Below, in pieces: positions 6,099-40,224 of a stretch of DNA of 64,000 bases. Position 1 is the first letter of the stretch, and each line of letters starts with the position of its first letter. The notes under the pieces are model-generated. The model did not search any database. It saw nothing but the letters and a program-made list of their open reading frames with translations, and was not told where the DNA came from. The translations under genes and the position numbers were made by a program. The DNA is taken from assembly GCA_013152385.1 (NCBI GenBank), contig JAADGL010000016.1, positions 47,694 to 111,693 of the forward strand. Reading direction: 5' to 3'. Source of the stretch: Acidobacteriota bacterium. GTDB lineage: Bacteria > Acidobacteriota > Holophagae > Thermotomaculales > Thermotomaculaceae.

Positions 6099-6701
6099 GT
6101 GGGAAAGAATAAAATTATTTATTCCATCCGGGTGCCCCGGATATTGGAAGCGACCGTAGCTTTAATTGCTGAAAAAGGAATTCAGAATATTACCCTGGAT
6201 CAGGTTGCACAGCGGGCGGAGCTGTCCAAAGGAGGGCTGGTGCACTATTTTCCCGGCAAGGATAAATTGATTGAGAGCGCGGTTGCCGATTTCTTCAGAA
6301 AGATATTTGAGAGGGGAAGGGAGATTCGCGACAGAATAGACAATCCCCTTAAACAGCTGCTTTCTTATACCTGGCTTTACAACAAAAACGATCCGGATCT
6401 TCTTGTCGGGTACAGGTTGTTTTTTGACATCATGTCAATTGCTTCCCGGGACCGGCGTTACAGACAGGTACTTCAGGATTTTGTTGAAAATTGGATTACG
6501 CTGCTGAAAGCTTCGATTTCCAGAGGTATTGCGGCGGGTGATTTTCAGGTGAGGGACGTTGAAGAAACAGCGCGGAGCGTTTCAGCTGTTTATCAGGGCG
6601 TGGCGTCCCGGTGGTTTTTGGACCCTGAAAATCATTCGGATGAATGGGCGGTGAGAACGGTGGAGAGTCTTGTGGGTTTTCTTGTGACAAATAAATTATA
6701 A
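6099..6701 (+). CDS. TetR/AcrR family transcriptional regulator
   Basis: N-terminal HTH region (ILEATVALIAEKGIQNITLDQVAQRAELSKGGLVHYF) typical of TetR. GTG start with GGAGG upstream. Confidence 0.85.
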   Translation: MGKNKIIYSIRVPRILEATVALIAEKGIQNITLDQVAQRAELSKGGLVHYFPGKDKLIESAVADFFRKIFERGREIRDRIDNPLKQLLSYTWLYNKNDPDLLVGYRLFFDIMSIASRDRRYRQVLQDFVENWITLLKASISRGIAAGDFQVRDVEETARSVSAVYQGVASRWFLDPENHSDEWAVRTVESLVGFLVTNKL

Positions 6702-6713
6702 AAGGGAGGGATT

Positions 6714-7109
6714 ATGCCGGTTTTTGAATCCACTGAAAAGATGTATGAGGTTTTGGGGGATCTTTTTGAAACACTGCTTGCGCATCCGGTGGCAGGCGAG
6801 AAGTTCAAAAAGCAGGAAGTGGTTATCCGTTTCATCATGAATGACCCCCAGGGTGAGATATGGCTTCTTCCCGAAGGAAAAGTGGTTTGCGGTGTTCCGG
6901 ATGGAGTAAAAGCGGACATTTCGATGACATTGAGCGGCGATACTGCGCATAATTTCTGGTTGAAGAAAATTACCATGCCGGTTGCACTCGCGAAAGGTTT
7001 GATTCGGGCGAAGGGGCCGCTGGCAAAGGTACTGAAACTTCTTCCGATTCTGAACCCCGCATACGAGGCTTACCCCGCAATCGCGGAAAAACACGGGCTG
7101 AGTATTTAG
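6714..7109 (+). CDS. SCP2 sterol/lipid-carrier domain protein
   Basis: 131-aa protein whose pattern (KADISMTLSGDTAHNFWLKKITMPVALAKGLIRAKGPL) is characteristic of SCP-2 sterol transfer domains. Confidence 0.7.
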   Translation: MPVFESTEKMYEVLGDLFETLLAHPVAGEKFKKQEVVIRFIMNDPQGEIWLLPEGKVVCGVPDGVKADISMTLSGDTAHNFWLKKITMPVALAKGLIRAKGPLAKVLKLLPILNPAYEAYPAIAEKHGLSI

Positions 7110-7118
7110 GGGGAGAAG

Positions 7119-7799
7119 ATGGCTATTGAAAGAGCGGTTCGGCAGTTTGAAACAGACAGGACGGAAGCTGTCAGGATTCTGTCCAGGCTTTTAATTGCAT
7201 CCGGGACAACTTCCCCCAGGGTGGGAGGTGTCGGGGAATGCACGTTTCACATTGTTGAAGATGAATGTGATATTGAAGACCTCTGCCAGCAAATTGAGAA
7301 TATTTCCAATGACAACGAAGCGTGGGGGTTTTTTAGAAGAGACGCGCAGATGCTTCGGGATGCGGACGCGGTGATTGTGATTACCTCATTGAGGTCGTTG
7401 AAGGACCCTTCCGATATCAACTGCAATATGTGCGGTTATTTGACCTGTGAGTATATGGAGCAGAGGGAAAAGCTGGACAAAAAAGATGCTGCTGTTGCCT
7501 ATACCGGCCCGTTGTGCACGTTCAGAGCGGCAAATGTGGCGTATGCCTTGAACGGGGTGCTTTCTCTGGCAAAGCAGCTGGGGGTTGATTTTGGTGTTTT
7601 CTGGAGTGCGGGGCTTGCCGCCATGCGGATGGGGGTGCTTCCCCGGGATACCGGCTTTGCCGTCGCGGTGGGAATCAGTATTTCCGAGAAGTCGCCTTTC
7701 CGGGATATTCCCCTGGATTACGATAAATTTAATGACAGAAGCATGAAGGACAGAATTATTTATCGATTGTGGCCGCAATTCCGTTCAATTTATTCATAA
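7119..7799 (+). CDS. DUF2148 (ferredoxin-domain, COG4739-like) protein, paralogue 1
   Basis: NCNMCGYLTCEYME...GPLCTFRAANVAYALNGV matches the NCGACGYxTC...GPxCxF core I remember for DUF2148 proteins. Confidence 0.6.
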   Translation: MAIERAVRQFETDRTEAVRILSRLLIASGTTSPRVGGVGECTFHIVEDECDIEDLCQQIENISNDNEAWGFFRRDAQMLRDADAVIVITSLRSLKDPSDINCNMCGYLTCEYMEQREKLDKKDAAVAYTGPLCTFRAANVAYALNGVLSLAKQLGVDFGVFWSAGLAAMRMGVLPRDTGFAVAVGISISEKSPFRDIPLDYDKFNDRSMKDRIIYRLWPQFRSIYS

Positions 7800-7809
7800 G
7801 GAGTGGGTG

Positions 7810-8457
7810 ATGGCAAAGAGAACGATGGAGGATCTGGTTCAATCGGGCCTTGAACGGGCGGTTGAGCTGATGGCCCTTGCGGCCAATGACGCGTGGCATT
7901 TTGGCGGAAAACAGATGTTGAAGATGGTTTCCCTTGATGAGGACGAGATGGAAGAGATGGCGAATTACGCTCTTTCCCTCGGAGACATGTCTCCTCTCGC
8001 GGCCCGGGATGGCCGTTTTGCCCTTGAATTGATGAAAGAGCCCTGGGCGGTTCTGGTTTTCGGTGCAGGCAGAAAATCAACTTTTAATTACAATTGCGGT
8101 GCCTGCGGTTTCAGAACCTGTGCAGAGTTGAACAAAGCGGAAACAGTGGAATCACTGACTTCAAACGGCCCGGCCTGTATTTTTGAGACCCTGAATCTGA
8201 ATATGGCAGCCAATGCCGCCGCTGCTGCTGCCGGGAGGCTGGGGCTTCATTGCCGGGTATTTTCCACACTTGCCTTTGCCGCGAAGGCGCTGGAATATAT
8301 CAATGCGGATATTGTGGTGGGGGTTGCGGTAAGTGCGGCCGGGAAGGACCCGTTTTTTGACCGGCATAAATTCTGGACAAAGGAAGAGTGGGAACGGGTT
8401 TTCAACAGGGAGTTTCCGACATTTAACCGGGGATTTATCGGAGCGGTGGAGGAATGA
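7810..8457 (+). CDS. DUF2148 (ferredoxin-domain, COG4739-like) protein, paralogue 2
   Basis: NYNCGACGFRTCAELNKAE...GPACIFETLNLNMAANAAA...GKDPFFDR. ATG at 7810 with AAGGAG at 7798-7803. Confidence 0.65.
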   Translation: MAKRTMEDLVQSGLERAVELMALAANDAWHFGGKQMLKMVSLDEDEMEEMANYALSLGDMSPLAARDGRFALELMKEPWAVLVFGAGRKSTFNYNCGACGFRTCAELNKAETVESLTSNGPACIFETLNLNMAANAAAAAAGRLGLHCRVFSTLAFAAKALEYINADIVVGVAVSAAGKDPFFDRHKFWTKEEWERVFNREFPTFNRGFIGAVEE

Positions 8458-8466
8458 GGAGGGTGT

Positions 8467-10065
8467 ATGAGTAAATCACATCTGAATCAGGTGATTACTT
8501 CCCATCTGGTGGAGTTTCAGGCTGACAGGTTTCCCGATCGGGAAATTCTTGTGTTTGAGCGGGGCGGTTCGGGGGAAGATGTTCTGACCTATTCCGATTT
8601 GCATGCGGCGGGGAACAGGCTTGCCGCCTACCTTCTCAGTAAGGGGGTGCAAAAGGGGGATGTGATTGCAATCTTCATGTATAACCGCCCGGAAGTCGTA
8701 TCGTTATTTGTGGCAGCTTCAACCATCGGCGCGGTTGCCGTTCCCATTGACCCCCGTTCCAGGGGGAAGCGGTTGAAATATTATCTGGCCCACACGAAAG
8801 CCAAAGGGATTTTTGTGGCCGGTGAAACCCTTGAAGCCTGCCGGGAAGTGAAAGACGAAGTTGATTCTCTGGAATTTGCCGCAGTGGCGTATCAGAGGGA
8901 TTATCCTGTTGAGGAGGACGTGGATTTCGAATCTGTGAGCGAAGTGCTTGAAAAGGAATGGAATACTGTTGAACAGCGTGTGTTTGATGTGGGCCATCCG
9001 GCACAGATTCTTTTTACCTCCGGCACCACGGGAAATCCGAAAGGTGTGGTGATATCACACCAGAGAATCGGGTTATACAATCTTCTGCGACAGCTTGCCT
9101 GGAAGTATAAAAAAGATGATGTCCTGTACACCGGCCTTTCCCTTTCCCATGCCAACGCACAGGCCGTGACCCTGTTTCCCGCACTTTATGGGGGGATCCG
9201 GGCGGTGTTCAGCCCGAAGTTTACAAAGTCGAGAATCTGGGAAATCTGCCGGAAATACGGCTGTACGACCTTTTCCCTTCTGGGCGGAATGGCGGCTGGA
9301 ATTTTCAATGAACCCGAAAGGGAGAATGATGCGGACAATCCGGTACGAAGGGTGGTAAGCGCGGGGATGCCGAAGGCAATCTGGAAAGCTTTTGAGGAGC
9401 GGTTCGGGGTGTTGGTCCACGAATGGTACGGTGCCGCCGAAGGGGGATTTGCGCACAATCCTCCCGGAAAAGGCCCGGTGGGCAGTTTCGGGAAACCGTT
9501 GCCGGGAGTGATGGAATTTGCGGTTATTGATGAAGCGGAAAACCGCCTTGGCCCCGATCAGACCGGCGAACTGATTATCCGGAATCTTCGGGGAGAAACG
9601 AAGGTGAATTATTACAACAATCCGGAAGCTTCCAGAGAGAAGGTCAGAAACGGATGGATGTTTACCGGCGATATGGTTCACCGCGATAAAAACGGCTGGT
9701 TCTTTTTTGATTTCAGAAAGGGAACGGAGTTGAGAAGGGCGGGGGATTTTATTCAGCCTGAATACCTTGAAGCGGTTATTGGAAAGCATAAGGCAGTTTC
9801 CGAGGTGTGTGTGATTGGGATTCCGGCTGAGAGCGGGGCTCCGGGGGAACACGATATTGTGGCGGTAATCCGGCCCTTTGACAGCGCTGCCCTTGATGTA
9901 AAAGAGCTGTTTGGTTTTTGCCAAAACAGCCTTGAAGCAAATTCCGTACCTCTTTACCTCTGGATTCTGGATGAAATTCCGAAAACACCGTCTGAAAAGT
10001 TTTTGAAACGGGTTCTGGTTGAAAAGTTCAGTCCGGATTTGAATGATGTGTACCGGAATAAATAG
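8467..10065 (+). CDS. AMP-forming acyl-CoA synthetase, FATP/very-long-chain-like subgroup
   Basis: AMP-binding motif ILFTSGTTGNPKGVV. The C-terminal FTGDMVHRDKNGWFFFDFRKGTELRRAGDFIQP resembles the FATP-type DRxGDTFRWKGENV region. Confidence 0.8.
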   Translation: MSKSHLNQVITSHLVEFQADRFPDREILVFERGGSGEDVLTYSDLHAAGNRLAAYLLSKGVQKGDVIAIFMYNRPEVVSLFVAASTIGAVAVPIDPRSRGKRLKYYLAHTKAKGIFVAGETLEACREVKDEVDSLEFAAVAYQRDYPVEEDVDFESVSEVLEKEWNTVEQRVFDVGHPAQILFTSGTTGNPKGVVISHQRIGLYNLLRQLAWKYKKDDVLYTGLSLSHANAQAVTLFPALYGGIRAVFSPKFTKSRIWEICRKYGCTTFSLLGGMAAGIFNEPERENDADNPVRRVVSAGMPKAIWKAFEERFGVLVHEWYGAAEGGFAHNPPGKGPVGSFGKPLPGVMEFAVIDEAENRLGPDQTGELIIRNLRGETKVNYYNNPEASREKVRNGWMFTGDMVHRDKNGWFFFDFRKGTELRRAGDFIQPEYLEAVIGKHKAVSEVCVIGIPAESGAPGEHDIVAVIRPFDSAALDVKELFGFCQNSLEANSVPLYLWILDEIPKTPSEKFLKRVLVEKFSPDLNDVYRNK

Positions 10066-10074
10066 GAGGTTTCT

Positions 10075-11310
10075 GTGTCGTATACCGATTTAAATATTGA
10101 ATTGACCCAAGAGCAGGAAGTGTTAAAAAAGGAGATACACAAGTTTGCACTTGAAGTTCTGCGGCCCGCCGCGGCGGAACTTGACAGAAAATCTCCCGCA
10201 GAAGTTATTGCGCCCGGTTCTGTTTACTGGGATGTGATGAAAAAGATGTATCAATTGGGATATCACACGGTTCATACCCCGGATGAGTACGGTGGACTTG
10301 GCCTTGATCCGGTGTCCCAGCATATTTTCTGGGAAGAACTGGGGTATGGAAGTGTCGGATTCGCGGTTTCTCTCGGGGTCAGCCTGTTTCCTTCGTTTAT
10401 GGCGTCCATGCTGGCGGATGATTTTATTATCGAAGAGGTAATTAAACCGTTTGCGGAATGCGCCGACGCCACCCGGATAGGATGCTGGGCCATTACAGAG
10501 CCGAATCACGGAAGCGATACCCTGGTTTCGGGGACGGATATTTTCAGGAATCCGGATGTGGTCCAGGATGTAAAGGCATACAAAAAAGGGGACAAATGGA
10601 TTTTGAACGGTCAGAAGTCCGCGTGGGTTTCCAATGGCCCGGTGGCGACCCAGGCACTTCTCTTTGTCAATATTGACAAAACAATGGGAATGGCCGGCGG
10701 CGGTATCTGTATCTGTGATTTGACACAGAAAGGTGTTCAGAAGGGGAAACCCCTTGATAAGCTGGGCCAGCGGGAGCTGCCTCAGGGGGAGATATATTTT
10801 TCAGACGCGGAAGTGCCGGAAGAATTGATGATTGTGGACCCGGAAAGTTACGAAGTGATGACCGAGATTGTCATTGCCGAAGCCAATATGCATATGGGGG
10901 CATTTTTTACCGGCCTGGCGCAGTCCGCCTATGACCTCGCGCTGGCATATTGCGTTGAGAGAAAGCAGGGCGGCCGTTATCTTGTCGAACATCAGGACGT
11001 GAAGAGCAAGCTTTTTAATATGTTCACGAAGGTGGAAACGGCGCGCTCCTATTCCCGGGCGGTGATGAACTTCAATTTGAATATTGCGCCGCCGGTAGCC
11101 AAATACAGCCTTTCTTCAAAGGTTTACTGTACGCAGGCGGCTTTTGAGGTATGCAATACCGCTTTGCAGCTGTTCGGCGGTTACGGCCTCAGCAGAGAAT
11201 ATGAGATTGAGAAACTGTTCAGGGACGCAAGGGCGGGACTGATTGAAGATGGTTCCAACGATGTTCTTGCGATCAGCGGCGGGAATATGATTGTAAAGGA
11301 GATTTTTTGA
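10075..11310 (+). CDS. acyl-CoA dehydrogenase
   Basis: Length and motifs (CWAITEPNHGSD, WVSNG, C-terminal QLFGGYGLSREYEIEKLFRDAR) are typical of ACAD. GTG start after AGGAGG. Confidence 0.85.
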   Translation: MSYTDLNIELTQEQEVLKKEIHKFALEVLRPAAAELDRKSPAEVIAPGSVYWDVMKKMYQLGYHTVHTPDEYGGLGLDPVSQHIFWEELGYGSVGFAVSLGVSLFPSFMASMLADDFIIEEVIKPFAECADATRIGCWAITEPNHGSDTLVSGTDIFRNPDVVQDVKAYKKGDKWILNGQKSAWVSNGPVATQALLFVNIDKTMGMAGGGICICDLTQKGVQKGKPLDKLGQRELPQGEIYFSDAEVPEELMIVDPESYEVMTEIVIAEANMHMGAFFTGLAQSAYDLALAYCVERKQGGRYLVEHQDVKSKLFNMFTKVETARSYSRAVMNFNLNIAPPVAKYSLSSKVYCTQAAFEVCNTALQLFGGYGLSREYEIEKLFRDARAGLIEDGSNDVLAISGGNMIVKEIF

Positions 11311-11311
11311 T

Positions 11312-12550
11312 ATGGAAGCGTATATTGCAGGCTCCGGAATGATAAAGTTCGGCAAATATCCGGATAAAACCGTCAGAACGATGGCAATTGATGCTATTGA
11401 ATCTGCGTTGAAAGACGGGGAGATTGAGAAGAAGCAAATCGAATACGCGTTTTTTTCCAACACTTTCTGGGGGATGTTTTCCAGACAGGATTCAATCAAA
11501 GGGGAAGTGGTTCTGCGTTCCATGGGGATGGATTCCATTCCTGTTGTCAATATCGAAAACGCCTGCGCAGGGGGAGCCTCCGCTTTGCATATGGCGTATC
11601 TTGCCGTGTTGAGCGGGCAGTGTGAGCTTGCCCTTGCCGTCGGTTCCGAGAAAATCAGCTCGGAAGACAAGGTCAAGTCCCTGACAGCCTATGCCTCGTG
11701 CATGGATATGGAGAATTTCAAGCGGCATCTAAGCGATGTTCTGATGTTGCAGCAATCTTTCCGGAACCTTGTTATTCCTGAAGAATTTCGGAAGCCGGGT
11801 GAAGGGCGCTCGGTTTTTATGGATGTGTATGCTGTGGGTGCCAGATGGCATATGGACAGATACGGTTCAACCCAGCGGCAGCTTGCCGTTGTCGCGGCAA
11901 AGAATCACTGGCATTCCTCAATGAATCCGCTGGCCCAGTATCAAATTCCAATGACTCCTGAAATGGTGTTGAATGACAGCCCGGTTGTCTGGCCGCTGAC
12001 CCGGTCCATGTGCGCCCCGGTGGGGGACGGTGCGGCTGCCTGTATTGTTGTGTCTGACCGGTTTTTGAAAAAACACGGGAAAGAGCGGGCGGTTAAAATC
12101 CGGGCCAGTGTCCTGGGTACGGGAAGAGACAGGGGTATTGACGACGAAGACCTGGGCAGTAGGCTGGGACGCCTCGCATATGAGAAGGCATCTGTTCAGC
12201 CGGCGGATATCGATGTGGCGGAACTGCACGACGCCACCGCATACGGAGAGCTTCATCAATGCGAAAATCTCGGGTTCTGCGGGGAAGGAGAGGGTGGACT
12301 CATTGCCGAACGGGGAGAAACAAAACTCGGCGGCAGAATTCCGGTCAATACCAGCGGCGGCCTTGAATCCAGAGGGCATCCCATTGGCGCATCAGGGCTT
12401 GCGCAGATTCATGAGTTGATGCTGCAATTGAGAGGAGAAGCTGGCGCGAGGCAGGTAAAAGGCGCGCGGCTGGCCCTTGCCCAGAACGGCGGTGGCAATA
12501 TCGGGCTGGAAGAGGCGGTGATGGGAATTACCGTTTTAGAGCGGGGATGA
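11312..12550 (+). CDS. thiolase-fold protein, SCPx / lipid-transfer-type thiolase
   Basis: Active-site Cys context VNIENACAGGASAL and C-terminal NTSGGLESRGHPIGASG. The overall layout matches SCP-x type thiolases rather than AtoB/FadA. Confidence 0.75.
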   Translation: MEAYIAGSGMIKFGKYPDKTVRTMAIDAIESALKDGEIEKKQIEYAFFSNTFWGMFSRQDSIKGEVVLRSMGMDSIPVVNIENACAGGASALHMAYLAVLSGQCELALAVGSEKISSEDKVKSLTAYASCMDMENFKRHLSDVLMLQQSFRNLVIPEEFRKPGEGRSVFMDVYAVGARWHMDRYGSTQRQLAVVAAKNHWHSSMNPLAQYQIPMTPEMVLNDSPVVWPLTRSMCAPVGDGAAACIVVSDRFLKKHGKERAVKIRASVLGTGRDRGIDDEDLGSRLGRLAYEKASVQPADIDVAELHDATAYGELHQCENLGFCGEGEGGLIAERGETKLGGRIPVNTSGGLESRGHPIGASGLAQIHELMLQLRGEAGARQVKGARLALAQNGGGNIGLEEAVMGITVLERG

Positions 12551-12551
12551 C

Positions 12552-13295
12552 GTGAAAACCATACTGATTACCGGTGTTTTATCGGGAATCGGGAAAGAAA
12601 GTGCCGAACTTTTTCTGAAAAACGGATGGGCTGTTGCCGGTTTGGACTTGCTTCCCGCCCCTTCTGTTTCAAAAGAAAATTTCCGTTATTTCCAATGCGA
12701 TGTTTCGGATTTGAACCGGGTAAACGATATTGCCGGTAGTTTAAGGGAGGAGGGAATCCGGCTGGACGCGCTGTTCAATTGTGCCGGTATTTTGAAGATG
12801 GGGACATTTGAGACCATCCCTATTGAGATGCAGCTCAGGGAGGTTGATGTAAATTTCAAAGGGGTTCTCAATTGTATCCACTGTTTTAAACCGCTGTTGA
12901 ATGAGGGGGCCGGTATTGTGAACATGGCATCTCTTTCCGCAATTTACGGGACACCTGAACTTGCCGTGTATTCCGCCACAAAGAGTGCGGTTCAGTCCAT
13001 TACCGAATCACTGAACATCGAATTCAGGAAGGAATCCATCCGTGTTTCCGATATTATTGTCGGTTATGTCCGGACACCGATGATTCTTGACAGCAAAAAT
13101 ATTGCCACAAGCGTGAAGAAACTGGGAGTGCCGGTTACACCGGGCAAGGTTGCGGCAGCTGTTTACAATGCGGTGTTAAAGGGAAAACAGGTTCATTATT
13201 ATGTGGGGGCGCAAACCAGAATCCTTGTGTTTCTGGCCGGGGTTTTCCCTTTTGCTTCGAAATGGATGGCCGGGTTTTTAGCGAGCGGGGACTGA
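12552..13295 (+). CDS. short-chain dehydrogenase/reductase (SDR)
   Basis: TGVLSGIGKE cofactor motif and YSATKSAV catalytic motif. GTG start 1 nt after the thiolase stop. Confidence 0.85.
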   Translation: MKTILITGVLSGIGKESAELFLKNGWAVAGLDLLPAPSVSKENFRYFQCDVSDLNRVNDIAGSLREEGIRLDALFNCAGILKMGTFETIPIEMQLREVDVNFKGVLNCIHCFKPLLNEGAGIVNMASLSAIYGTPELAVYSATKSAVQSITESLNIEFRKESIRVSDIIVGYVRTPMILDSKNIATSVKKLGVPVTPGKVAAAVYNAVLKGKQVHYYVGAQTRILVFLAGVFPFASKWMAGFLASGD

Positions 13296-28145: not shown

Positions 28146-28612
28146 TTGTTTTTTCCCTCTTGATAATAACAGTATGCCCGCAGAGCGGACACGCCCGGCG
28201 GTTCAATCAGACTGTACCACACCGCCGGGGTACTGTATAGAGTGAACGGCAACTGAAACCGGAGAGTTTTCCGGCCTCAAACGGGCCGGTTTTCCGAAGA
28301 TAACTCGGTATGCAACAGTGGCAGCCGGTTCCGGCTTCTGATCTGCAGTATTTTATCCTTCATGTACAACCCGAAATAATTATTAAGAATAGCCTTTTAT
28401 AAAACCCCCCCTTTTTTTCTTTATTTTGTGGGAATATAATTCTGAATCATGGATGTTAATGATCCGGGAATTAATACCGTTGTTCCCGGTAAAATTCCGT
28501 TTTCTGACTTTATCCCGGCACAGGTTACAGGTTGAGGATTGTACGCTGCGGCATAGTGGAGGGGCGCTTCGTGCTTTCGCTTTTTCCGGCACTCTGATAG
28601 AATGACGGTGTT

Positions 28613-28881
28613 ATGATTTACGGTAAAGTTGCCGGTTCGGTGTGGGCACCCAGAAGGTGGAGACGCTGAACGGGCTTAAGTTGCTTATTGTTCAGCATTA
28701 TAAGGTCACGGGGGAAGCGCTGGATGCTTTCACGGTGGCGGTGGACGGCGTCGGTGCCGGTGCCGGTGAAATGGTGCTGATGGCGCAGGGAAGTTCCGCC
28801 CGCCAGACTCCAATTACAGAGAAACGTCCGGTGGACGCGGTGATCATGGCAATTGTGGATAAGCTGGAGATTGAATCGTGA
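28613..28881 (+). pseudogene. BMC vertex (pentamer) protein, EutN/CcmL family, copy 1; the N-terminal 11 codons are in a different frame
   Basis: ATG at 28613 gives MIYGKVAGSVW and then runs out of frame. The frame starting at 28642 gives (V)GTQKVETLNGLKLLIVQ...AVIMAIVDKLE. The joined sequence parallels copy 2 (MLLGRVEGHVWATRK...). Confidence 0.6.
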
Positions 28882-29378
28882 CACTGAATCTCAACAGTAT
28901 TGTGGACGACATTCTTTCGGAACGACAGGGAATTGTACTGGGAGCCGATCATGGCGGTTATGCGTTGAAAGAGGAACTGAAGCCTTTTCTCGGAAAACTG
29001 GGGTTTCAGGTTGCAGATCTCGGTACTTTTTCATCCGCTTCGGTCAATTATCCGGATTTCGCCTTGAAGGTGGCGCAGGCGGTTCAAAGCGGTCGGGCCC
29101 GGTTCGGTATTATGATTGACGGTGCCGGTATCGGCTCCGCCATTGTCTGCAACAAGGTGAAGGGGATCCGTGCTGCCCACTGTGCCAACACCTTTGAGGC
29201 TTACAATGCCCGGGCGCACAATAATTGCAATGTTCTGACCCTCGGTGCCCGGGTAATCGGCATTGAGCTGATTAAACGTATTGTGGATACGTTTCTGAAG
29301 ACACCATTTGAAGGGGGGCGGCATCAGGACAGGGTATCGTTGATTACGGAGTGGGAAAATGCTGCTTGGAAGGGTTGA
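28878..29378 (+). CDS. rpiB: ribose-5-phosphate isomerase B (RpiB/LacAB family) with a 17-aa N-terminal extension
   Basis: LGADHGGYALKEEL...GIMIDGAGIGSAIVCNK...NARAHNNCNVLTLGARV. The GTG start overlaps the upstream stop (GTGA). Confidence 0.85.
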   Translation: MTLNLNSIVDDILSERQGIVLGADHGGYALKEELKPFLGKLGFQVADLGTFSSASVNYPDFALKVAQAVQSGRARFGIMIDGAGIGSAIVCNKVKGIRAAHCANTFEAYNARAHNNCNVLTLGARVIGIELIKRIVDTFLKTPFEGGRHQDRVSLITEWENAAWKG

Positions 29379-29622
29379 AGGCCATGTCTGGGCCACCCGG
29401 AAACTGGATGTGTTCCAGGGAAAGAAACTGATGGTGGTTCAACCCCTTGACGAAGGGCTGAATCCGGTTTCCCGGCATATTGTGGCGGTGGACACGGTGG
29501 ATGCCGGTATCGGAGATGTGGTTTGCCTTGCCACCAGCAAAGAAGCGGCTGTTCCCATGGCGGAGAAATTGATTCCGGTGGATGCGGCGATTGTCGGCAT
29601 TGTGGACAGGGTGGACCGATGA
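29359..29622 (+). CDS. BMC vertex (pentamer) protein, EutN/CcmL family, copy 2
   Basis: MLLGRVEGHVWATRKLDVFQGKKLMVVQP...VDAAIVGIVDRV. Overlaps the rpiB end by 20 nt. Confidence 0.85.
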   Translation: MLLGRVEGHVWATRKLDVFQGKKLMVVQPLDEGLNPVSRHIVAVDTVDAGIGDVVCLATSKEAAVPMAEKLIPVDAAIVGIVDRVDR

Positions 29623-29912
29623 TTCTGTGCAAAGTAACCGGTTCTATCGTTTCCACAAAGAAAGATCCGAATTTTCAGGGCTTTAAAATTATGTCTGTTA
29701 CCCCTGTCCGGCCGGACGGAAGCACTGTGGGAAAACCGTTTCTTGCCATTGATGCCACTTCTTCCGGCAAAGGGGATACGGTGCTGGTAATTAAAGACGG
29801 CGGCTCACTTCAGATGATTACCGGTTCCAAAAAGATTCCGGAAAATGCTATAATTGCCGCAGTGGTGGATAACCTGGAAATTGATATCCCGGAGGCCAAC
29901 AATGAACAGTGA
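29619..29912 (+). CDS. BMC vertex (pentamer) protein, EutN/CcmL family, copy 3
   Basis: [29 protein letters not shown]...[15 protein letters not shown] overlap with copy 2. Confidence 0.8.
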
Positions 29913-30765
29913 AATTGAAAAAATCGTTGCCGAACTTACCGGTGCGCCGGAACAGCCCACGGGCTGGGAAGCGTTTGATGATTCTTCCCCCGACCTTCTT
30001 TACTGTGAGGAAACGGCGGAGGGCGGTACCGAGTGCGTTCTGAAGCTTGCCGGGACGATTGATAAACTGGTCAGAATCGGCGCGGATAGAATTTCCACGG
30101 CTCCCGGTATCGGAGAGGTGGATGTTAACCTTGCTCACCTTATTGACCACACGCTGCTGAAAGCCAATGCCACCACCGATGAGGTCACCAAGCTCTGCCT
30201 CGAAGCCAAAGAATATGGATTCGCTTCTGTCTGCATTAACCCGTATTTTGTCCCCCTGGCAGATTCTATTCTTCACGGCACCGACGTGAAGGTTTGTACC
30301 GTCATCGGCTTCCCTCTGGGATGTACGCCGAAAGAGGTCAAGGCGTTCGAAGCGGAAAATGCGGTAAAACAGGGAGCCGAAGAGGTTGATATGGTGGTGA
30401 ATGTGTCGGCTCTGAAATCCGGGAAGTTCGCGGAAGTGGAAGATGATATCCGGGCGGTTCGTAAGGCGGTTCCCGACGCAATTTTGAAAGTGATTATCGA
30501 AACCTGCTACCTCACCGACAGTGAAAAAACCGCTGCCTGTACTGCGGCGAAGAATGCCGCTGCCGATTATGTGAAAACCTCCACCGGGTTCGGAACCGGC
30601 GGCGCTACGGAGCACGATATCGCACTGATGCGAAGAACCGTTGGCAGCCGGATGGGGGTCAAGGCTTCCGGCGGCATTCACGATTTTGAAACCGCGCTGG
30701 GTATGGTCAAGGCCGGTGCCACCCGTATCGGCGCCAGTGCCAGTATCCGGATTGTTTCCGGCTGA
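29902..30765 (+). CDS. deoC: deoxyribose-phosphate aldolase (DERA) with an about 75-aa N-terminal extension
   Basis: Core motifs [30 protein letters not shown] and [11 protein letters not shown] at 29902 with GGAGG at 29891. Overlaps copy 3 by 11 nt. Confidence 0.85.
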
Positions 30766-33850: not shown

Positions 33851-34366
33851 TTATTTTTCTTCAGCCGCTTCTTTTTGCGGAACAATTTCCATCAAGAGGG
33901 CATCGCCGTCCACCATATCGCCCACTGATACGGGGCAGTTGCCGACGGTTCCGTCAATGGGAGAACGGATTTCCACCTGGAGTTTCATGGATTCCATCAG
34001 GATGAGAACCTGGTCTTTTTCCACTGTTCCGCCGGATTCTGCCATAAGTTCCAGGATTTTCCCGGGCATGGGGGCTTTTACACTACCGTCCCCCCCGGTT
34101 TCACCGGCTCCGGCATCTCTGCCCCGGTTGAAAGTGATTTTTTCGGTTCTTCCCCGCCACTGTACCCAGGTATATTCCCCGTCTGTGACTGCGGCTGCCG
34201 GTACGGCCCGGCCGCCGGTTGTGCCGGCAGCGATTATTCTGCCGTTTTCATCGGTGACAACAGAAAGAGATACCGCTTCGCCGTTTACCGTACCGGAAAG
34301 GGTTCCGTGTTCCAGTTTCAGGTTTTTTAGATCGAATTCCTGTTCATTCCAAACTATCCGTGTCAT
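33851..34366 (-). CDS. stand-alone biotin carboxyl carrier (biotinyl/lipoyl domain) protein
   Basis: C-terminal biotinylation context VLILMESMKLQVEIRSPIDGTV. ATG at 34366, 16 nt after the biotin carboxylase stop. Confidence 0.7.
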   Translation of the reverse strand: MTRIVWNEQEFDLKNLKLEHGTLSGTVNGEAVSLSVVTDENGRIIAAGTTGGRAVPAAAVTDGEYTWVQWRGRTEKITFNRGRDAGAGETGGDGSVKAPMPGKILELMAESGGTVEKDQVLILMESMKLQVEIRSPIDGTVGNCPVSVGDMVDGDALLMEIVPQKEAAEEK

Positions 34367-34382
34367 GCCATTGCCTCTCTTT

Positions 34383-35867
34383 TCATGGAATTCGGGCATT
34401 GACCGGCGGGTAATAAAAGCCGGCCCCGTCTCCGGAATCCGGCAGTTGCGCCGGTTTCCCGGTTGTTTTCCGCAAAGCCGCTGCCAGGAGCAGCCATTCC
34501 GGTTCAATGGGGGCGTCCGCTGCTTTCAGTTCTTCCCGGTACCGGTCGATGAAGCTTGTGTCCAGTTCTCCCGCCCGGAATGCCGGATGGGACAGAATCC
34601 GCATCAGAAATTCCCGGTTGGTGGTGACACCGAGAATGACAAAGTTTTCCAGCGCCAGCATTGCCCGTTCCAGCGCGTGCTGTCTGGAATGGCCTTTTAC
34701 CACAACCTTTGCAATCATCGGGTCAAAATCCGCGAAGATTTCGCTGCCGGTTGCAACCGCGCTTTCAACCCGGATGCCCGGGCCGGACGGTTCTCTGTAC
34801 AGGAGGATTTTCCCCGGTGACGGCATGAAATTCTGATCCGGGTCTTCGGCGTAAATACGGAATTCAATAGCGTGGCCGGCACCCCGGATTTTTTTCTGGG
34901 GAACCGCTTCCACCGTGCCCAGTGCTTCTTCAATCTGCCACGCCACAAGGTCTACCCCGAAAACTTCTTCCGTTACCGGGTGTTCCACCTGAATCCGGGT
35001 GTTCATTTCAAGGAAGTAGAAATTCAGGTTTTCATCCACGATGAACTCCACCGTTCCGGCTCCGATGTAGTTTACGATATCGGCAATCCGAACCGCCGCC
35101 TCTCCCATTTCACGGCGGAGTTTCTCGTTCACAACCGGGGAGGGGCTTTCTTCAATGATTTTCTGGTGGCGGCGCTGAATGGTGCATTCACGCTCTCCCA
35201 CGTATACGGTTCTGCCCCCGGGGAAGGAAAATATCTGAATCTCAATGTGCCGGGGTTTTACAATACATTTTTCAACAAATACGTCTTCGCTGCCGAAGTA
35301 GGCGGCGCTTTCGGATTTTGACATGCGGATTGCGTCAGCCAGCGCGTCCGGGCTGTCCACCCGGCGCATTCCCTTTCCCCCGCCGCCCATGCTGGCTTTT
35401 ACCAGAACAGGAAACCCGACGGCTTCAGCCATTTCTTTGATTTCAAGGGGGTTCAGTCCGTCAATGGAAAAGCCCGGAACCGGTGAAACATTGGCTTTTT
35501 TCGCAATTTCCCGGGCCCGTTCCTTATGCCCCATCAGGGAAATGGACCCGGCGGGGGGGCCGATGAAAATCAATCCGTTTTGTTCACAGCTCTCCGCAAA
35601 CTTTGCATTTTCTGCGAGGAAGCCGTAGCCGGGATGCACCGCCTGGCAATTTTCCGATTTTGCCAGCGCCACAAGCGCCTGTCCGTCAAGATAAATGTTG
35701 TCGGGGGCCCGGACAATGCGGCAGTCTTTGAAAATGGATACTCCCTGCTTGTATTCTTTGTCTGTTAGCGGCAGAACCGGGACAATTCCTTTTTCAATGA
35801 GTGCGGTGGCAATTCTTCTGGCAATTTCTCCCCGGTTGGCAATCAGTACCCGCTTAATCGTCACCAT
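34383..35867 (-). CDS. biotin carboxylase subunit of an acyl-CoA carboxylase (no fused BCCP)
   Basis: MVTIKRVLIANRGEIARRI N-terminus, ATP-grasp region GGGGKGMR, EMNTRIQVEHPVTE. Confidence 0.85.
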   Translation of the reverse strand: MVTIKRVLIANRGEIARRIATALIEKGIVPVLPLTDKEYKQGVSIFKDCRIVRAPDNIYLDGQALVALAKSENCQAVHPGYGFLAENAKFAESCEQNGLIFIGPPAGSISLMGHKERAREIAKKANVSPVPGFSIDGLNPLEIKEMAEAVGFPVLVKASMGGGGKGMRRVDSPDALADAIRMSKSESAAYFGSEDVFVEKCIVKPRHIEIQIFSFPGGRTVYVGERECTIQRRHQKIIEESPSPVVNEKLRREMGEAAVRIADIVNYIGAGTVEFIVDENLNFYFLEMNTRIQVEHPVTEEVFGVDLVAWQIEEALGTVEAVPQKKIRGAGHAIEFRIYAEDPDQNFMPSPGKILLYREPSGPGIRVESAVATGSEIFADFDPMIAKVVVKGHSRQHALERAMLALENFVILGVTTNREFLMRILSHPAFRAGELDTSFIDRYREELKAADAPIEPEWLLLAAALRKTTGKPAQLPDSGDGAGFYYPPVNARIP

Positions 35868-36651
35868 GATAGTCCTCCGACCAGGACGGCCGCCGTTTTT
35901 CAAAAAAGGCCCGAATCCCTTCCTGCCCCTCTTCCGAAACCCGGGCGGAAGCAATCATCCGCACGGTCAGTTCTTCCAGTTCCGGGCTCGGGGGTGCGGC
36001 AATGTGATCCATAAGGTGTTTGATTTTCCGCTGGGAAGTCATTCCGCCGCTTAAAAGTTCGCTTAAAATTTTGTCTCTCCCGGCTTTCAGCGCGTCAGCA
36101 GAGTCGAAAACTTTGTGAACCAGCCCGATTTCTCTTGCCCTGGCCGCGTCGAAACGTTCTCCGGTCAGCATGTAATACCGGGAAACCGAAATCCCGGTTT
36201 TTTCCACAATGTAGGGGCCGATCACTGCCGGAATAATACCGAGGCGGACTTCACCGAAGGAAAAGGTTGCGTTTTTTGCTGCCAGTGCGATGTCCGAGGC
36301 TGCCACGAGCCCCACCGCTCCGCCGATGGCCGGGCCGTTTACCACCGCTATGGTCACCGGCCGGGCTGTTCGGAGTGTCCGGTAGAGTGTGGCAAGGCGT
36401 CCGGAGTCCGCTTCGTTTTCTTCCAGTGTGAAGTCTTTCATCTTTCGCATCCAGTTGAGGTCTGCTCCGGCACAGAAGGCGTTTCCGGAACCGGAAATCA
36501 CCAGTACCCGGATTTCTTCCCGGTCCGCGTCCCGGAGAACCTGAACGATTTCATCCATCATGATGTCATTCATGGCATTGCGTTTTTCCGGGCGGTTCAG
36601 GGTCAAAAACCAGACCGAACCTTTTTTCTTTAAATCAATTGCCTGAAACAT
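35854..36651 (-). CDS. enoyl-CoA hydratase/isomerase family protein (methylglutaconyl-/isohexenylglutaconyl-CoA hydratase-like)
   Basis: Crotonase motifs LNRPEKRNAM, GNAFCAGADL and GPAIGGAVGL. Confidence 0.8.
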   Translation of the reverse strand: MFQAIDLKKKGSVWFLTLNRPEKRNAMNDIMMDEIVQVLRDADREEIRVLVISGSGNAFCAGADLNWMRKMKDFTLEENEADSGRLATLYRTLRTARPVTIAVVNGPAIGGAVGLVAASDIALAAKNATFSFGEVRLGIIPAVIGPYIVEKTGISVSRYYMLTGERFDAARAREIGLVHKVFDSADALKAGRDKILSELLSGGMTSQRKIKHLMDHIAAPPSPELEELTVRMIASARVSEEGQEGIRAFFEKRRPSWSEDYHGDD

Positions 36652-36652
36652 G

Positions 36653-38438
36653 TTATTTCTCCACCGAATTCAGTACATCCACGGGAATATCAAATTCCTG
36701 CGCGATCAGGGCATGGGCCAGGGTTTTCCCCTGGGCGTCTATCCGCAGGCTTAACGTACCGCCGCCGCCCAGCGCTTCATTGAGGAGAAAATTCCATGCC
36801 AGCAGATTGGGAACCGGATAGCGTTCGACTTTTCCTTTTACCAGTTCCCTGAAAATTTTCTTTACCCGTTCTGCCGTCAAAAGTGTGCCGATAAAGTGAT
36901 ATGCCAATTCCGACCGGGCAATGATGCCGATATTGGACATATCACCCTTATCTCCGCTCCGCCCCAGGGCGATAGCTTTCAGTGGCAGGCGTTTTGTTTC
37001 GGAAGAAAAGGTCAGATTGCTGTCGGCAGGGTCCGGAGTGTCAGCGGGAATCGGTATTCCGCCGGTTTCCGGCCAGCCGCCGGTTTCATGAAACAGGGAT
37101 TTTTCTCCTTCAAACACGGTAACTTCCCACCGGGAAATTTCCTGCGGCACCAGTGCCGGCCAGTAGGACACCACATTCCGGACCTGGGGTGCGCCACCGG
37201 TCACCGCCACAGCCGGCGGCCCGCTTAAAATCAATGCCGGCAGTTTACGGCGGAAACGCTCGAACTTTGAACGATCGTGGTCCCGTACCGCAAAACGGAG
37301 TAACACCTCGTTTGACTCCGGAAACGGGGCGAGGTGCCGGTGGCAGGCGTTCAGCCCGACGTATTCTGTCAGATAGTCCTCAAAATCCGTGCCGACCCGG
37401 GACCAGAAAATTTCCGCGAATTTTTCCGCTTTCTCCCTTGCGTCCGGCCCGGAAATAATAATGCTCCCTTCGGACTTGAATCCGTCTTCATAGGCAATGG
37501 ATACTTTTAATAAATCCGTCGGCGTTGCTCCTTTGATGCCGAAAACCCGAACCCGGTTTTCACCTGCGGCTTCCAGCCGAATGGAGCTGAAATCCGCGAT
37601 TACGTCCGGTGTAATGTAATTTTTCGGCTGTCCCATTTCATAGAGGAGCTGTTCCCGGACAGTATCCACCGAAACCATTCCCCCGAGGGATTCGTGTTTT
37701 GTAATTACAATACTGCCGTCCTCCGATACCTCGGCAATGGGGTAGCCCACCACTTCAAATGACGGCACTTTCCGCCAGTCGGTGAAATTTCCGCCGGTAC
37801 TCTGCGCCGCATTCCAGAATGTGCCCGGCCACAATTCCCGCCGCCAGTTTGTCATAGTCGTTTTCTGCCCAGTCAAAAGAGGCCATCATCGTTGCCAGTG
37901 TAATGCCGGTATCGGTAACCCGTCCGGTAATTACAATGTCCGCTCCCGCCTTCAACGCCTTTACTACTGGCAGGGCGCCGAAGTAAAGGTTGGCAGAGAG
38001 AACCCGGCCTCGGATTTCGCTGTATGGAGCACCGTTTTCCATATTTGAGAAATCAATTCCCTCATCGGCAAAACGGTCAATGTCGTCAAGAATATTATCT
38101 CCGTCCACCACGGCAATTTTCGGGTTTAACCCTTTTGCAGCCGCCAGTTTTGTCAGTGCCCGGGCCAATCCTGCCGGGTTGACTCCTCCGGCATTGGTGA
38201 TAATCCGGATTCCTTTCTCCATAACGGTTTCAAACACTGGTTCCAGATGATTCAGAAAATCCCGGGCAAAGCCTGCTTCCGGGTTTTTCCGCATCTGTTT
38301 GTTCATAATGGACATGGTGATTTCAGCAAGATAATCAATGGTAATAAAATCCAGATCGCCGCCGTTTACCTGATATTTCAAGGCGTCCGGATCATCGCCC
38401 CAGTATCCCCCTGCATTGCCGATTCGAATGGTTTTCAT
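36653..38438 (-). pseudogene. atuA: AtuA-family (DUF1446) protein, split into two frames near nt 37800
   Basis: ORF 38438-37755 (MKTIRIGNAGGYWGDDPDAL...GHILECGA) and ORF 37876-36653 (...AAQSTGGNFTDW...) together give about 594 aa. The conserved ECGAQxTGGNF motif is broken between frames. Confidence 0.6.
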
Positions 38439-38482
38439 GCTTCCTCCTCAAAAAGAAACAGCCGGGTTGTTTCAAAAAACTG

Positions 38483-40090
38483 CTACATACGAAAAATACC
38501 GAAATCTGTTTTCTCAAAAGGTGAGTTCAATGTCGCGGAAAGCGCCAGCCCCAGCGCGTCCCGTGTGCGGCGCGGATCCAGAATGCCGTCATCCCAGAGC
38601 CGCGCGGTTGAATAATAGGGGCTGCCTTCATAGTCATATTTCTTTAAAATCGGGTCTACAATGGCGGCTTCTTCCTTCGGTGTCAGTGTTTTCCCTTCCC
38701 GGGCCATCTGGTCTTTCTTCACTGTCAGCAGTACCGAAGCCGCCTGTTCTCCTCCCATCACCGAAATCCGGCTGTTGGGCCACATGAACAGGAAACGGGG
38801 ATCATAGGCGCGGCCGCACATTCCGTAATTTCCGGCACCGAACGAACCGCCCATTATCAGGGTGATTTTCGGCACATTGACATTGCTCACCGCCATTACC
38901 ATCTTGGCACCGTCTTTGGCGATTCCCTGATGCTCATACTGCTTTCCGACAATGAAACCGGTGATGTTCTGCAGAAAAAGCAGGGGGATTTTTTCACTGC
39001 CGCAAAGTTCAATAAAATGCGTTGCTTTGAACGCGCTTTCCGAAAACAGCACCCCATTGTTTGCAATAATTCCCACCGGAATCCCGAAAATATGCGCGAA
39101 ACCGGTTACAACCGTCGGTGCATAGCGTTTTTTGAACTCAAAAAACCGGCTGCCGTCCACCAGCCGGGCAATAATCTCGTAGGCATCCATATTTTTGCGC
39201 CGGTCCACCGGAACAATTCCGTACAGTTCTTCAACAGGATACAGCGGGTCTTCCGGAGTTTCCAGTTTCAGAGACTGCCTGCGGTGTTTTCCGAGATACT
39301 TCACCACATCCCGTGCCATCTGAATCGCATGCTCGTCGTTTTCGGCAAAATGATCCGCCACCCCGCTGATTCGGGAATGAACATCCGCGCCGCCCAGCTC
39401 TTCCGCAGTGACATCTTCGCCGGTTGCGGCTTTCACCAGAGGCGGCCCGGCAAGAAAAATTGTTCCGGTGCCTTTCACAATAATACTCTGGTCACTCATG
39501 GCGGGAATATACGCGCCCCCTGCGGTGCAGTAGCCCAGCACAACCGAAATCTGTGGAATGCCCTTTGCCGACATCTGCGCCTGGTTGAAGAAAATGCGCC
39601 CGAAATGTTCCCTGTCCGGGAACACCTCCGCCTGTTTCGGCAGAAACGCTCCGCCGGAATCCACCAGGTAAATACAGGGCAGGCGGTTTTCCTCCGCAAT
39701 TTCCTGCGCCCGGAGATGCTTTTTTACAGTAACAGGATAGTAACAGCCGCCTTTCACCGTGGGGTCATTGGCAACAATCATCACCTCTCTGCCGGAAACC
39801 CGGCCCACACCGGTGATGATTCCCCCTGCCGGGACATCGTCATTGTAGAGTGCTTCCCCCGCAAGGGTGCTCAGTTCCAGAAAAGGGCTGTCTTCATCCA
39901 GCAGCAGGTCTATCCGGTCCCGGGCTTCCATTTTGTTCAGCTGTTTCAGCCTGGAATGTGCCTTTTCCGGCCCCCCCTGCTTTACCCGATTAATTTTATC
40001 CCGCAATTCAGCCGCCAGTCTGCGGTTGAACGCATCATTTTCCCTGAAATCCGCCGCGTCTGTTTTCAACCGGCTTTTCAATACCGCCAT
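38483..40090 (-). CDS. acyl-CoA carboxylase carboxyltransferase (beta) subunit, methylcrotonyl-/geranyl-CoA carboxylase type
   Basis: Typical MCC-beta/AtuC layout ([53 protein letters not shown]). ATG at 40090 preceded by GGAGG. Confidence 0.85.
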
Positions 40091-40224
40091 CCACGCCTCC
40101 AGTGATGAAATAAGCACAAAGAGATGGTTTTATTAAAACAGAAAAGAGCATTGATTGCAATGTCATTCCCGGCCCCGTTTCCCCTGTTTTACCGGCGAAA
40201 CGGAGGGGGAATCGGAAGAAACAA

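Follow-up and report, generated by a model that had tools for sequence, protein, structure and literature searches.

A five-gene operon from a Holophagae metagenome-assembled genome as the probable vertex-and-cargo half of a dispersed SPU-type microcompartment

Bacterial microcompartments (BMCs) of the sugar-phosphate-utilization (SPU) types are defined in the catalogue of Sutter 2021 (PMC8217296) by loci that combine PF01791 and PF02502 with at least three BMC-P pentamers. Deoxyribose-phosphate aldolase (DERA) together with RpiB is the signature of SPU in this catalogue, whereas the Planctomycetes-Verrucomicrobia (PVM) type uses a class II aldolase. Satellites are made up of shell proteins alone or with enzymes. 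Split SPU loci are catalogued as well: SPU7 keeps the BMC-P of the grey and orange clades together with PF01791 in satellites, and in the FRAG types the pentamer triplet lies apart from BMC-H and aldehyde dehydrogenase (AldDh), in some of them with PF01791 or PF02502 in the consolidated locus. Here we analyze an operon of three pentamer genes (P1, P2 and P3), an RpiB-type gene (RPI) and a DERA gene, located within a 64-kb stretch of contig JAADGL010000016.1, hereafter the window, which comes from a metagenome-assembled genome (MAG) of the Holophagae (Acidobacteriota). On account of its enzyme hallmarks, the structure of its pentamer triplet and its homologous loci, this operon is likely the vertex-and-cargo half of a dispersed SPU microcompartment. 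The same evidence bears out a first, sequence-only reading of the window, which had proposed a satellite of an SPU-type microcompartment.

The five genes, in the order P1, RPI, P2, P3 and DERA as identified with Pfam, are packed on the + strand at 28613-30765. The Pfam families are EutN/CcmL (PF03319) for the pentamers, LacAB_rpiB (PF02502) for RPI and DeoC (PF01791) for DERA. The sequence-only reading had described them as five translationally coupled genes. Their identities (Pfam, NCBIfam), their order and all four overlaps, read from the sequence as GTGA at 28878, 20 nt at 29359, ATGA at 29619 and 11 nt at 29902, stood up to analysis, but the first pentamer gene is not intact as had been assumed, since it carries a 1-nt deletion at 28648 (see below). 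In the closest relative among the loci that we fetched (L092), all gene overlaps are identical to those of the window. The five genes form one translationally coupled operon, and purifying selection on all of them is strong, dN/dS being 0.02-0.14 in comparison with the related locus L085.

RPI scores 165 bits against TIGR01120, above the rpiB equivalog cut-off of 138.65 (NCBIfam). An alignment to 3he8 and 1o1x places an aspartate, residue 81 (29118-29120), at the position of the catalytic cysteine, so that the sequence reads IDGAG as compared with ICGTG, the RpiB motif of C. thermocellum and T. maritima. In the fetched loci, every RPI adjoining BMC-P and DERA genes has an aspartate at this position, and the sole RpiB homologue that lies outside such a module (L149, at 2986) has a cysteine. 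RPI further begins with an amphipathic helix (NLNSIVDDILS, approximately 28887-28919), which is conserved in the clade of close relatives as xxIVDDILSE. It thus shows both the replacement of cysteine by aspartate at the position of E. coli Cys66 and an N-terminal encapsulation peptide (EP), two features reported for every SPU RPI (PMC11585597). In SPU6, RPI was found to have negligible isomerase activity and to form a 1:1 complex with DERA (PMC11585597); its linker comprises about 75 residues there and about 5 in the window. By analogy with what has been proposed for the SPU6 pair, the RPI of the window, lacking the catalytic cysteine, probably serves mainly as a packaging partner.

DERA matches the TIGR00126 deoC equivalog over residues 77-285 with 283 bits (cut-off 117.3; NCBIfam). 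Its active site of Asp, Lys and Lys is intact, D163, K196 and K225 being invariant in an alignment of 21 sequences. The Pfam and TIGR matches start at residues 77-80, and in an AlphaFold2 model (predicted local distance difference test, pLDDT, 84.8) the residues ahead of them comprise a helix at 3-13 (29908-29940), a disordered linker at 15-27 (pLDDT <50) and strands at 31-37, 43-48 and 56-60, with the TIM barrel following from about residue 77. The helix, EIxKIVAELT, is conserved in the clade. Both the catalytic residues and the extension of a helix plus strands are as expected for SPU: all SPU DERAs have an N-terminal extension with an amphipathic helix and two strands, whereas DERAs that do not belong to BMCs are without it (PMC11585597). 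The helix is described there as about 25-30 residues long, compared with about 11 in the window. Within the extension, residues 28-60 (29983-30081) are predicted to form a small β unit in which C35 and C45 are kept across the clade. The hydrophobic moments of the N-terminal helices of RPI and DERA are moderate. We take the N-terminal segments of both proteins to resemble the encapsulation peptides of EutC and PduP.

A separate observation concerns Thermotomaculum hydrothermale, a cultivated relative whose genome is complete and whose GlyS is 59% identical to that of the window. Its DERA (P0016) is annotated with 229 aa and without the extension, and its start (MTPDGQFNVNISHL, versus ...DRITPDGxFNVNISHL in close relatives) lies exactly where the extension of the relatives ends. 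Among the best 120 P1 matches listed, there was no P1 homologue from the 2.3-Mb chromosome of this species, and our literature searches found no paper tying it to microcompartments. Either the start of this DERA has been mis-called, as reported for many BMC enzymes (PMC11585597), or the module has been lost by this cultured species.

The pentamers of the module fall into three orthogroups, with identities of 0.54-0.66 among genes of the same position and 0.31-0.38 among those of different positions. P1, which has 89 aa when one base is restored, retains the canonical VGAGxGE...GSSARQT motifs, and its N-terminal strand is intact and nearly invariant across the 20 closest homologues aligned; one P1 homologue is labelled 'Holophagae bacterium'. 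The best PDB match of the repaired protein is the shell pentamer of H. ochraceum (5v74, E 1.6e-20). P2 and P3 are divergent BMC-P paralogues, each in an orthogroup of its own. P2 carries the motif ATSKEAA...PVDAAIVGIVD and matches 4i7a best (4.9e-11); P3, which has an insertion of one residue (VIKDGGSL) and whose C-terminal tail is acidic, has its best PDB match in 5v74 (1.6e-10). P3 is always found directly downstream of P2, and the orthologues of the two are an adjacent pair at the end of SPU3-like main loci. Their adjacency in the window fits the published rule that two BMC-P of a triplet, those of the grey and orange clades, invariably lie side by side (Sutter 2021). The reason for the existence of BMC-P triplets is an acknowledged open question in the literature.

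In two of the related loci, a pentamer ends in a tail rich in lysine and arginine. These are the third pentamer of a Lindowbacteria locus (L011, 9492-9860, ending in ...RRRGRPKGSKNKR) and the P2-like pentamer of an SPU3 locus (L047, 14052-14348, ending in ...KKRRKR). Both tails are reminiscent of the DNA-binding tails that have been reported on AMC-P2 of Hodarchaeales (PMC12747264); the P3 tail of the window is acidic instead.

Our sample of the clade around the window consists of 13 fetched loci (L081-L093), some of which are the same stretch from different assemblies; the stretches extend up to 10 kb on each side of the module, less where a contig ends. The P1-RPI-P2-P3-DERA block stands alone in every fetched contig of this sample, which amounts to at least 10 related contigs. 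DERA identity to the window ranges from 93% down to 57%, and the flanking genes vary between groups of contigs. The same block is present in Candidatus Lindowbacteria RIFCSPLOWO2_12_FULL_62_27 (L011), where it is preceded by a EutJ-like gene and PduL. Two contigs from metagenomes, L108 and L144, contain it as well, and as a conserved unit it recurs in at least four lineages. A search of genome contigs with DERA as query yielded no close relative, the best full-length identity being 52%. In the trees of Sutter 2021, the Lindowbacteria genome with the identical block is labelled 'fragmented (sat) (omitted)' and has BMC-Tdp and BMC-Ts at distant locus tags, which shows that a genome with the block can have PF00936 genes at other sites.

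In the Thermotomaculum-like contigs L086-L091 (for example L087, 7283-12634), the module is located between dnaN-recF-gyrB-gyrA on the - strand and Iso_dh-rpmH-rnpA-yidC-jag-mnmE-mnmG-parA-parB on the + strand. The interval between dnaN-recF-gyrBA and rpmH-rnpA-yidC is the usual site of dnaA at the replication origin.

Outside this clade, orthologues of all five genes are found beside BMC-H, AldDh and BMC-T in six main loci (L047, L110, L122, L123, L140 and L149). Among metagenome loci of at least 8 kb with a P1-like pentamer, 20 of 33 contain BMC-H/T in the fetched stretch, which again reached up to 10 kb on each side or to the end of the contig, typically in the order RPI-DERA-H-P1-AldDh-T-P2-P3, and 13 contain none. 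The sequence-only reading had considered the arrangement in the window unusual, a judgement that does not survive comparison with these 13 loci and with the split SPU and FRAG loci already catalogued (Sutter 2021). The locus belongs to this catalogued kind and is real but ordinary. That reading had also pointed to features of both the PVM and the SPU types; the combination of DERA and RpiB is that of SPU, and the PVM part falls away, as this type has a class II aldolase instead (Sutter 2021).

Nothing else needed for an organelle is encoded in the 64 kb, as had been noted from the sequence alone. In approximately 60 open reading frames (ORFs) covering the window, Pfam searches found no PF00936, PF00171, PF06130 or acetate kinase, and thus no BMC-H/T, AldDh or PduL. 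Searches of the window with tblastn gave nothing beyond the five genes, neither with PduA, EutM and CcmK2 sequences not taken from database records, nor with real SPU3 sequences of BMC-H, BMC-T and AldDh and the PduL of Lindowbacteria. The locus therefore presents itself as satellites and FRAG loci do, combining a triplet with two enzymes while the flanking DNA, at least 28 kb in each direction, is free of BMC-H. A main locus has BMC-H together with BMC-P; because PF00936 is absent from the window and from the stretches fetched for L081-L093, the locus is a satellite or a fragment by the definition of Sutter 2021.

If the operon is indeed one half of a dispersed SPU microcompartment, the BMC-H/T facets, a CoA-acylating AldDh and possibly PduL would be encoded elsewhere in the genome. 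P1 would cap the vertices of the shell. A complex of DERA and RPI might be packaged via the N-terminal helices of the two enzymes, as the SPU6 pair and the general model of metabolosomes suggest. Inside the shell, DERA would cleave deoxyribose 5-phosphate, yielding glyceraldehyde 3-phosphate and acetaldehyde; the latter would be trapped, and the encapsulated AldDh would oxidize it to acetyl-CoA.

As assembled, P1 has a broken reading frame. The interval 28613-28881 comprises 269 nt, a number not divisible by three. Translation from the ATG at 28613 yields MIYGKVAGSVWAPRRWRR*, that is, 18 codons followed by a TGA stop at 28667-28669; the remainder of P1 is in another frame, and the Pfam profile is matched only from its position 13. 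An alignment traces this to the 1-nt deletion at 28648, where the window reads GGGC-ACC and L085, L081 and L092 have GGGCCACC or GGGCTACC. Owing to the deletion, the ATG and the stop at 28881 are in different frames, and the assembled sequence encodes either a product running from the ATG to the early stop or one of 79 aa starting at a GTG at 28642. On the 119,405-bp source contig, the JGI gene call is the N-terminally shortened 79-aa protein (P0269), which shows that the lesion is present in the deposited contig. A second lesion, the loss of 2 nt from a short GC repeat at 37804 (CTCT--GCGCC, versus CTCTGCGCGCC in L092), splits AtuA (36653-38438, - strand) into two ORFs; the AtuA of L092 is intact, with 595 aa. 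Within the approximately 16 kb that can be aligned with L092, these two deletions are the only uncompensated frame-breaking indels, and neither is located in a long homopolymer.

Two further candidates for frameshifts were rejected. Programmed frameshifting in P1 is at odds with its being encoded in a single frame by every relative, and a suspected third frameshift, between the ORFs of biotin carboxylase and BCCP (34383-34507), disappears because these are separate genes in L092.

The P1 lesion bears on one rival explanation, according to which the operon is a decaying remnant: the organelle would be in the course of being lost from this genome, the frameshift would truly inactivate P1, and what is left would be a relic. 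Such decay would account for a deletion that is found in the deposited contig and is reflected in the JGI call, for a second frame-breaking deletion, in AtuA, within the same 16 kb, and for the position of both outside long homopolymers. Consensus errors of a MAG would, however, explain equally well that 16 kb contain two frame-breaking deletions, one of 1 nt and one of 2 nt. Save for the missing base, P1 shares 98% identity with its intact counterpart in the closest relative, and its dN/dS against L085 is 0.04; the remaining four genes are undamaged, and their overlaps and active-site residues are conserved. The low dN/dS and the presence of only two such indels in approximately 16 kb lead us to consider an error of assembly or consensus, or else a mutation that arose very recently, more likely than an old pseudogene. 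We consider it improbable that the operon is a relic.

A different explanation takes the absence of shell genes at face value. The triplet, RPI and DERA would then work without BMC-H/T facets, as a pentamer scaffold or a pentamer-only particle, and there would be no main locus. BMC-H/T are indeed absent from the window and from the stretches fetched around every clade copy, but these are a small fraction of any genome, and the Lindowbacteria genome with the identical module has BMC-T genes elsewhere. This explanation could also draw on the stable maintenance of a compact operon among core genes, as in the dnaN/rpmH region, and on the acknowledged question of why BMC-P triplets exist at all; yet the pentamer nearest to P1 was solved as part of a shell that contains hexamers, complete loci with BMC-H/T include orthologues of all five genes, and both enzymes keep helices of the EP type, which bind between shell tiles (PMC11585597). 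A module that functions independently of a shell therefore seems unlikely. We know of no pentamer-only assembly, and met with none in the literature surveyed. The stronger proposition, that the triplet, the altered RPI and DERA of the Holophagae clade are a self-sufficient unit without any hexameric or trimeric shell protein, strikes us as very unlikely; if it were true, BMC-P triplets would have a function beyond the capping of vertices. The finding would gain greatly in interest if a closed genome of the clade turned out to have no BMC-H.

The interpretation as one half of a dispersed SPU microcompartment, which we prefer, has several observations weighing against it. No PF00171 AldDh is found in the 64 kb around the operon, and the curated set of Dwyer 2024 (PMC11585597) demands an AldDh of an SPU locus. 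PF00936 is missing from the stretches fetched around the module in all 13 loci L081-L093 as it is from the window, and a shell in this lineage is consequently something that we infer. Throughout a deep clade, the module has been kept as a self-contained operon surrounded by housekeeping genes. Its order, P1-RPI-P2-P3-DERA, differs from the order RPI-DERA-H-P1-AldDh-T-P2-P3 of SPU3, for which reason the block is not a simple cut of an SPU3 locus. Finally, the P1 frameshift together with the AtuA lesion 9 kb away may mean that this genome copy is decaying or that the assembly is error-prone.

The coordinates of the operon and of the region preceding it are given in the table. The neighbors on both sides are unrelated to it: a patatin, an MqnC/E-like radical SAM enzyme, an FAD protein and Nramp upstream, and an M16 peptidase followed by an Atu/Liu-like acyl-CoA carboxylase cluster downstream. 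In the intergenic region ahead of P1, sigma-70-like sites on the + strand do not exceed the number expected from shuffling, and there is no Rfam match; scans for promoters, terminators and Rfam families across the operon region likewise gave nothing exceeding chance. Upstream of the P1 ATG, only about 40 nt are alignable with L092. That contig has approximately 4 kb of extra genes between patatin and P1 (5823-10000: Vut_1, a small ORF, and PKD- and FG-GAP-repeat proteins), which are absent from the window, and the upstream boundary of the module is thus a site of rearrangement.

Features of the operon and the region preceding it (window coordinates)
Feature	Position	Strand	Evidence and remarks
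Divergent intergenic region, 467 nt	28146-28612		Between patatin gene (- strand) and P1; presumed promoter region
P1	PF03319 match span 28642-28881	+	Pfam 3.3e-22, profile positions 13-83 only
RPI	28878-29378	+	PF02502 8.9e-55, match from residue 19; 166 aa
P2	29359-29622	+	PF03319 2.9e-27; 87 aa
P3	29619-29912	+	PF03319 3.6e-20; 97 aa
DERA	29902-30765	+	PF01791; 287 aa

Two other gene groups of the window are recorded here for completeness. The carboxylase cluster past the M16 peptidase (33851-40117, - strand) is of the acyclic-terpene/leucine type, comprises a carboxyltransferase, AtuA, an enoyl-CoA hydratase, a biotin carboxylase and a separate BCCP, and is syntenic with L092. At 7119-8457, two proteins with DUF2148 ferredoxin domains are encoded in tandem, flanked by a TetR regulator and a cluster of acyl-CoA ligase, dehydrogenase, thiolase and SDR genes (6099-13295).

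With the operon described here, a clade of Holophagae/Thermotomaculum-related Acidobacteriota is added to the carriers of SPU-type microcompartment genes; in the literature searched, we found no paper that names this lineage as such a carrier. The P1-RPI-P2-P3-DERA block as a recurrent unit is a modest addition to the catalogue. In this block the RPI-DERA cargo pair, and not the facets, accompanies the three pentamers, which could help to explain why BMC-P occur in triplets. Being compact and translationally coupled, the block would also lend itself well to co-expression experiments with a model shell.

Among the described systems, the window shares with SPU, and with SPU3 especially (PMC8217296, PMC11585597), the N-terminal extension and the Asp/Lys/Lys residues of DERA, the replacement of cysteine by aspartate and the EP in RPI, and the adjacent pair of divergent BMC-P. 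SPU3 has moreover been reported from Acidobacteria, and orthologues of the five genes are found in SPU3-like main loci (L047, L110, L122 and others). The main loci of SPU3 differ in that they contain BMC-H, BMC-T and AldDh, of which the window has none in 64 kb.

The FRAG loci (FRAG5, FRAG8, FRAG3 and FRAG7; Sutter 2021, Supplementary Data 2) have in common that their shell genes are scattered and that the BMC-P triplet is always there. FRAG5 and FRAG8 hold SPU enzymes, DeoC adjoins BMC-P in FRAG3, and in FRAG7 the triplet lies apart from BMC-H, AldDh and PTAC. Their hosts are Planctomycetes, Gemmatimonadetes, Calditrichaeota, Hydrogenedentes and others, with Holophagae not among them, and the accessible text of the catalogue on FRAG makes no mention of the interleaved five-gene module as a unit. 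The satellites of the HO (Haliangium ochraceum) type I and MIC3 systems differ from the window in having a class II aldolase (PF00596) and no RPI, and in HO type I one pentamer stays in the main locus, unlike in the window. They resemble it in that BMC-P paralogues and an aldolase are encoded apart from a main locus with BMC-H/T and AldDh, and it is to the HO shell pentamer (5v74) that P1 of the window is most similar.

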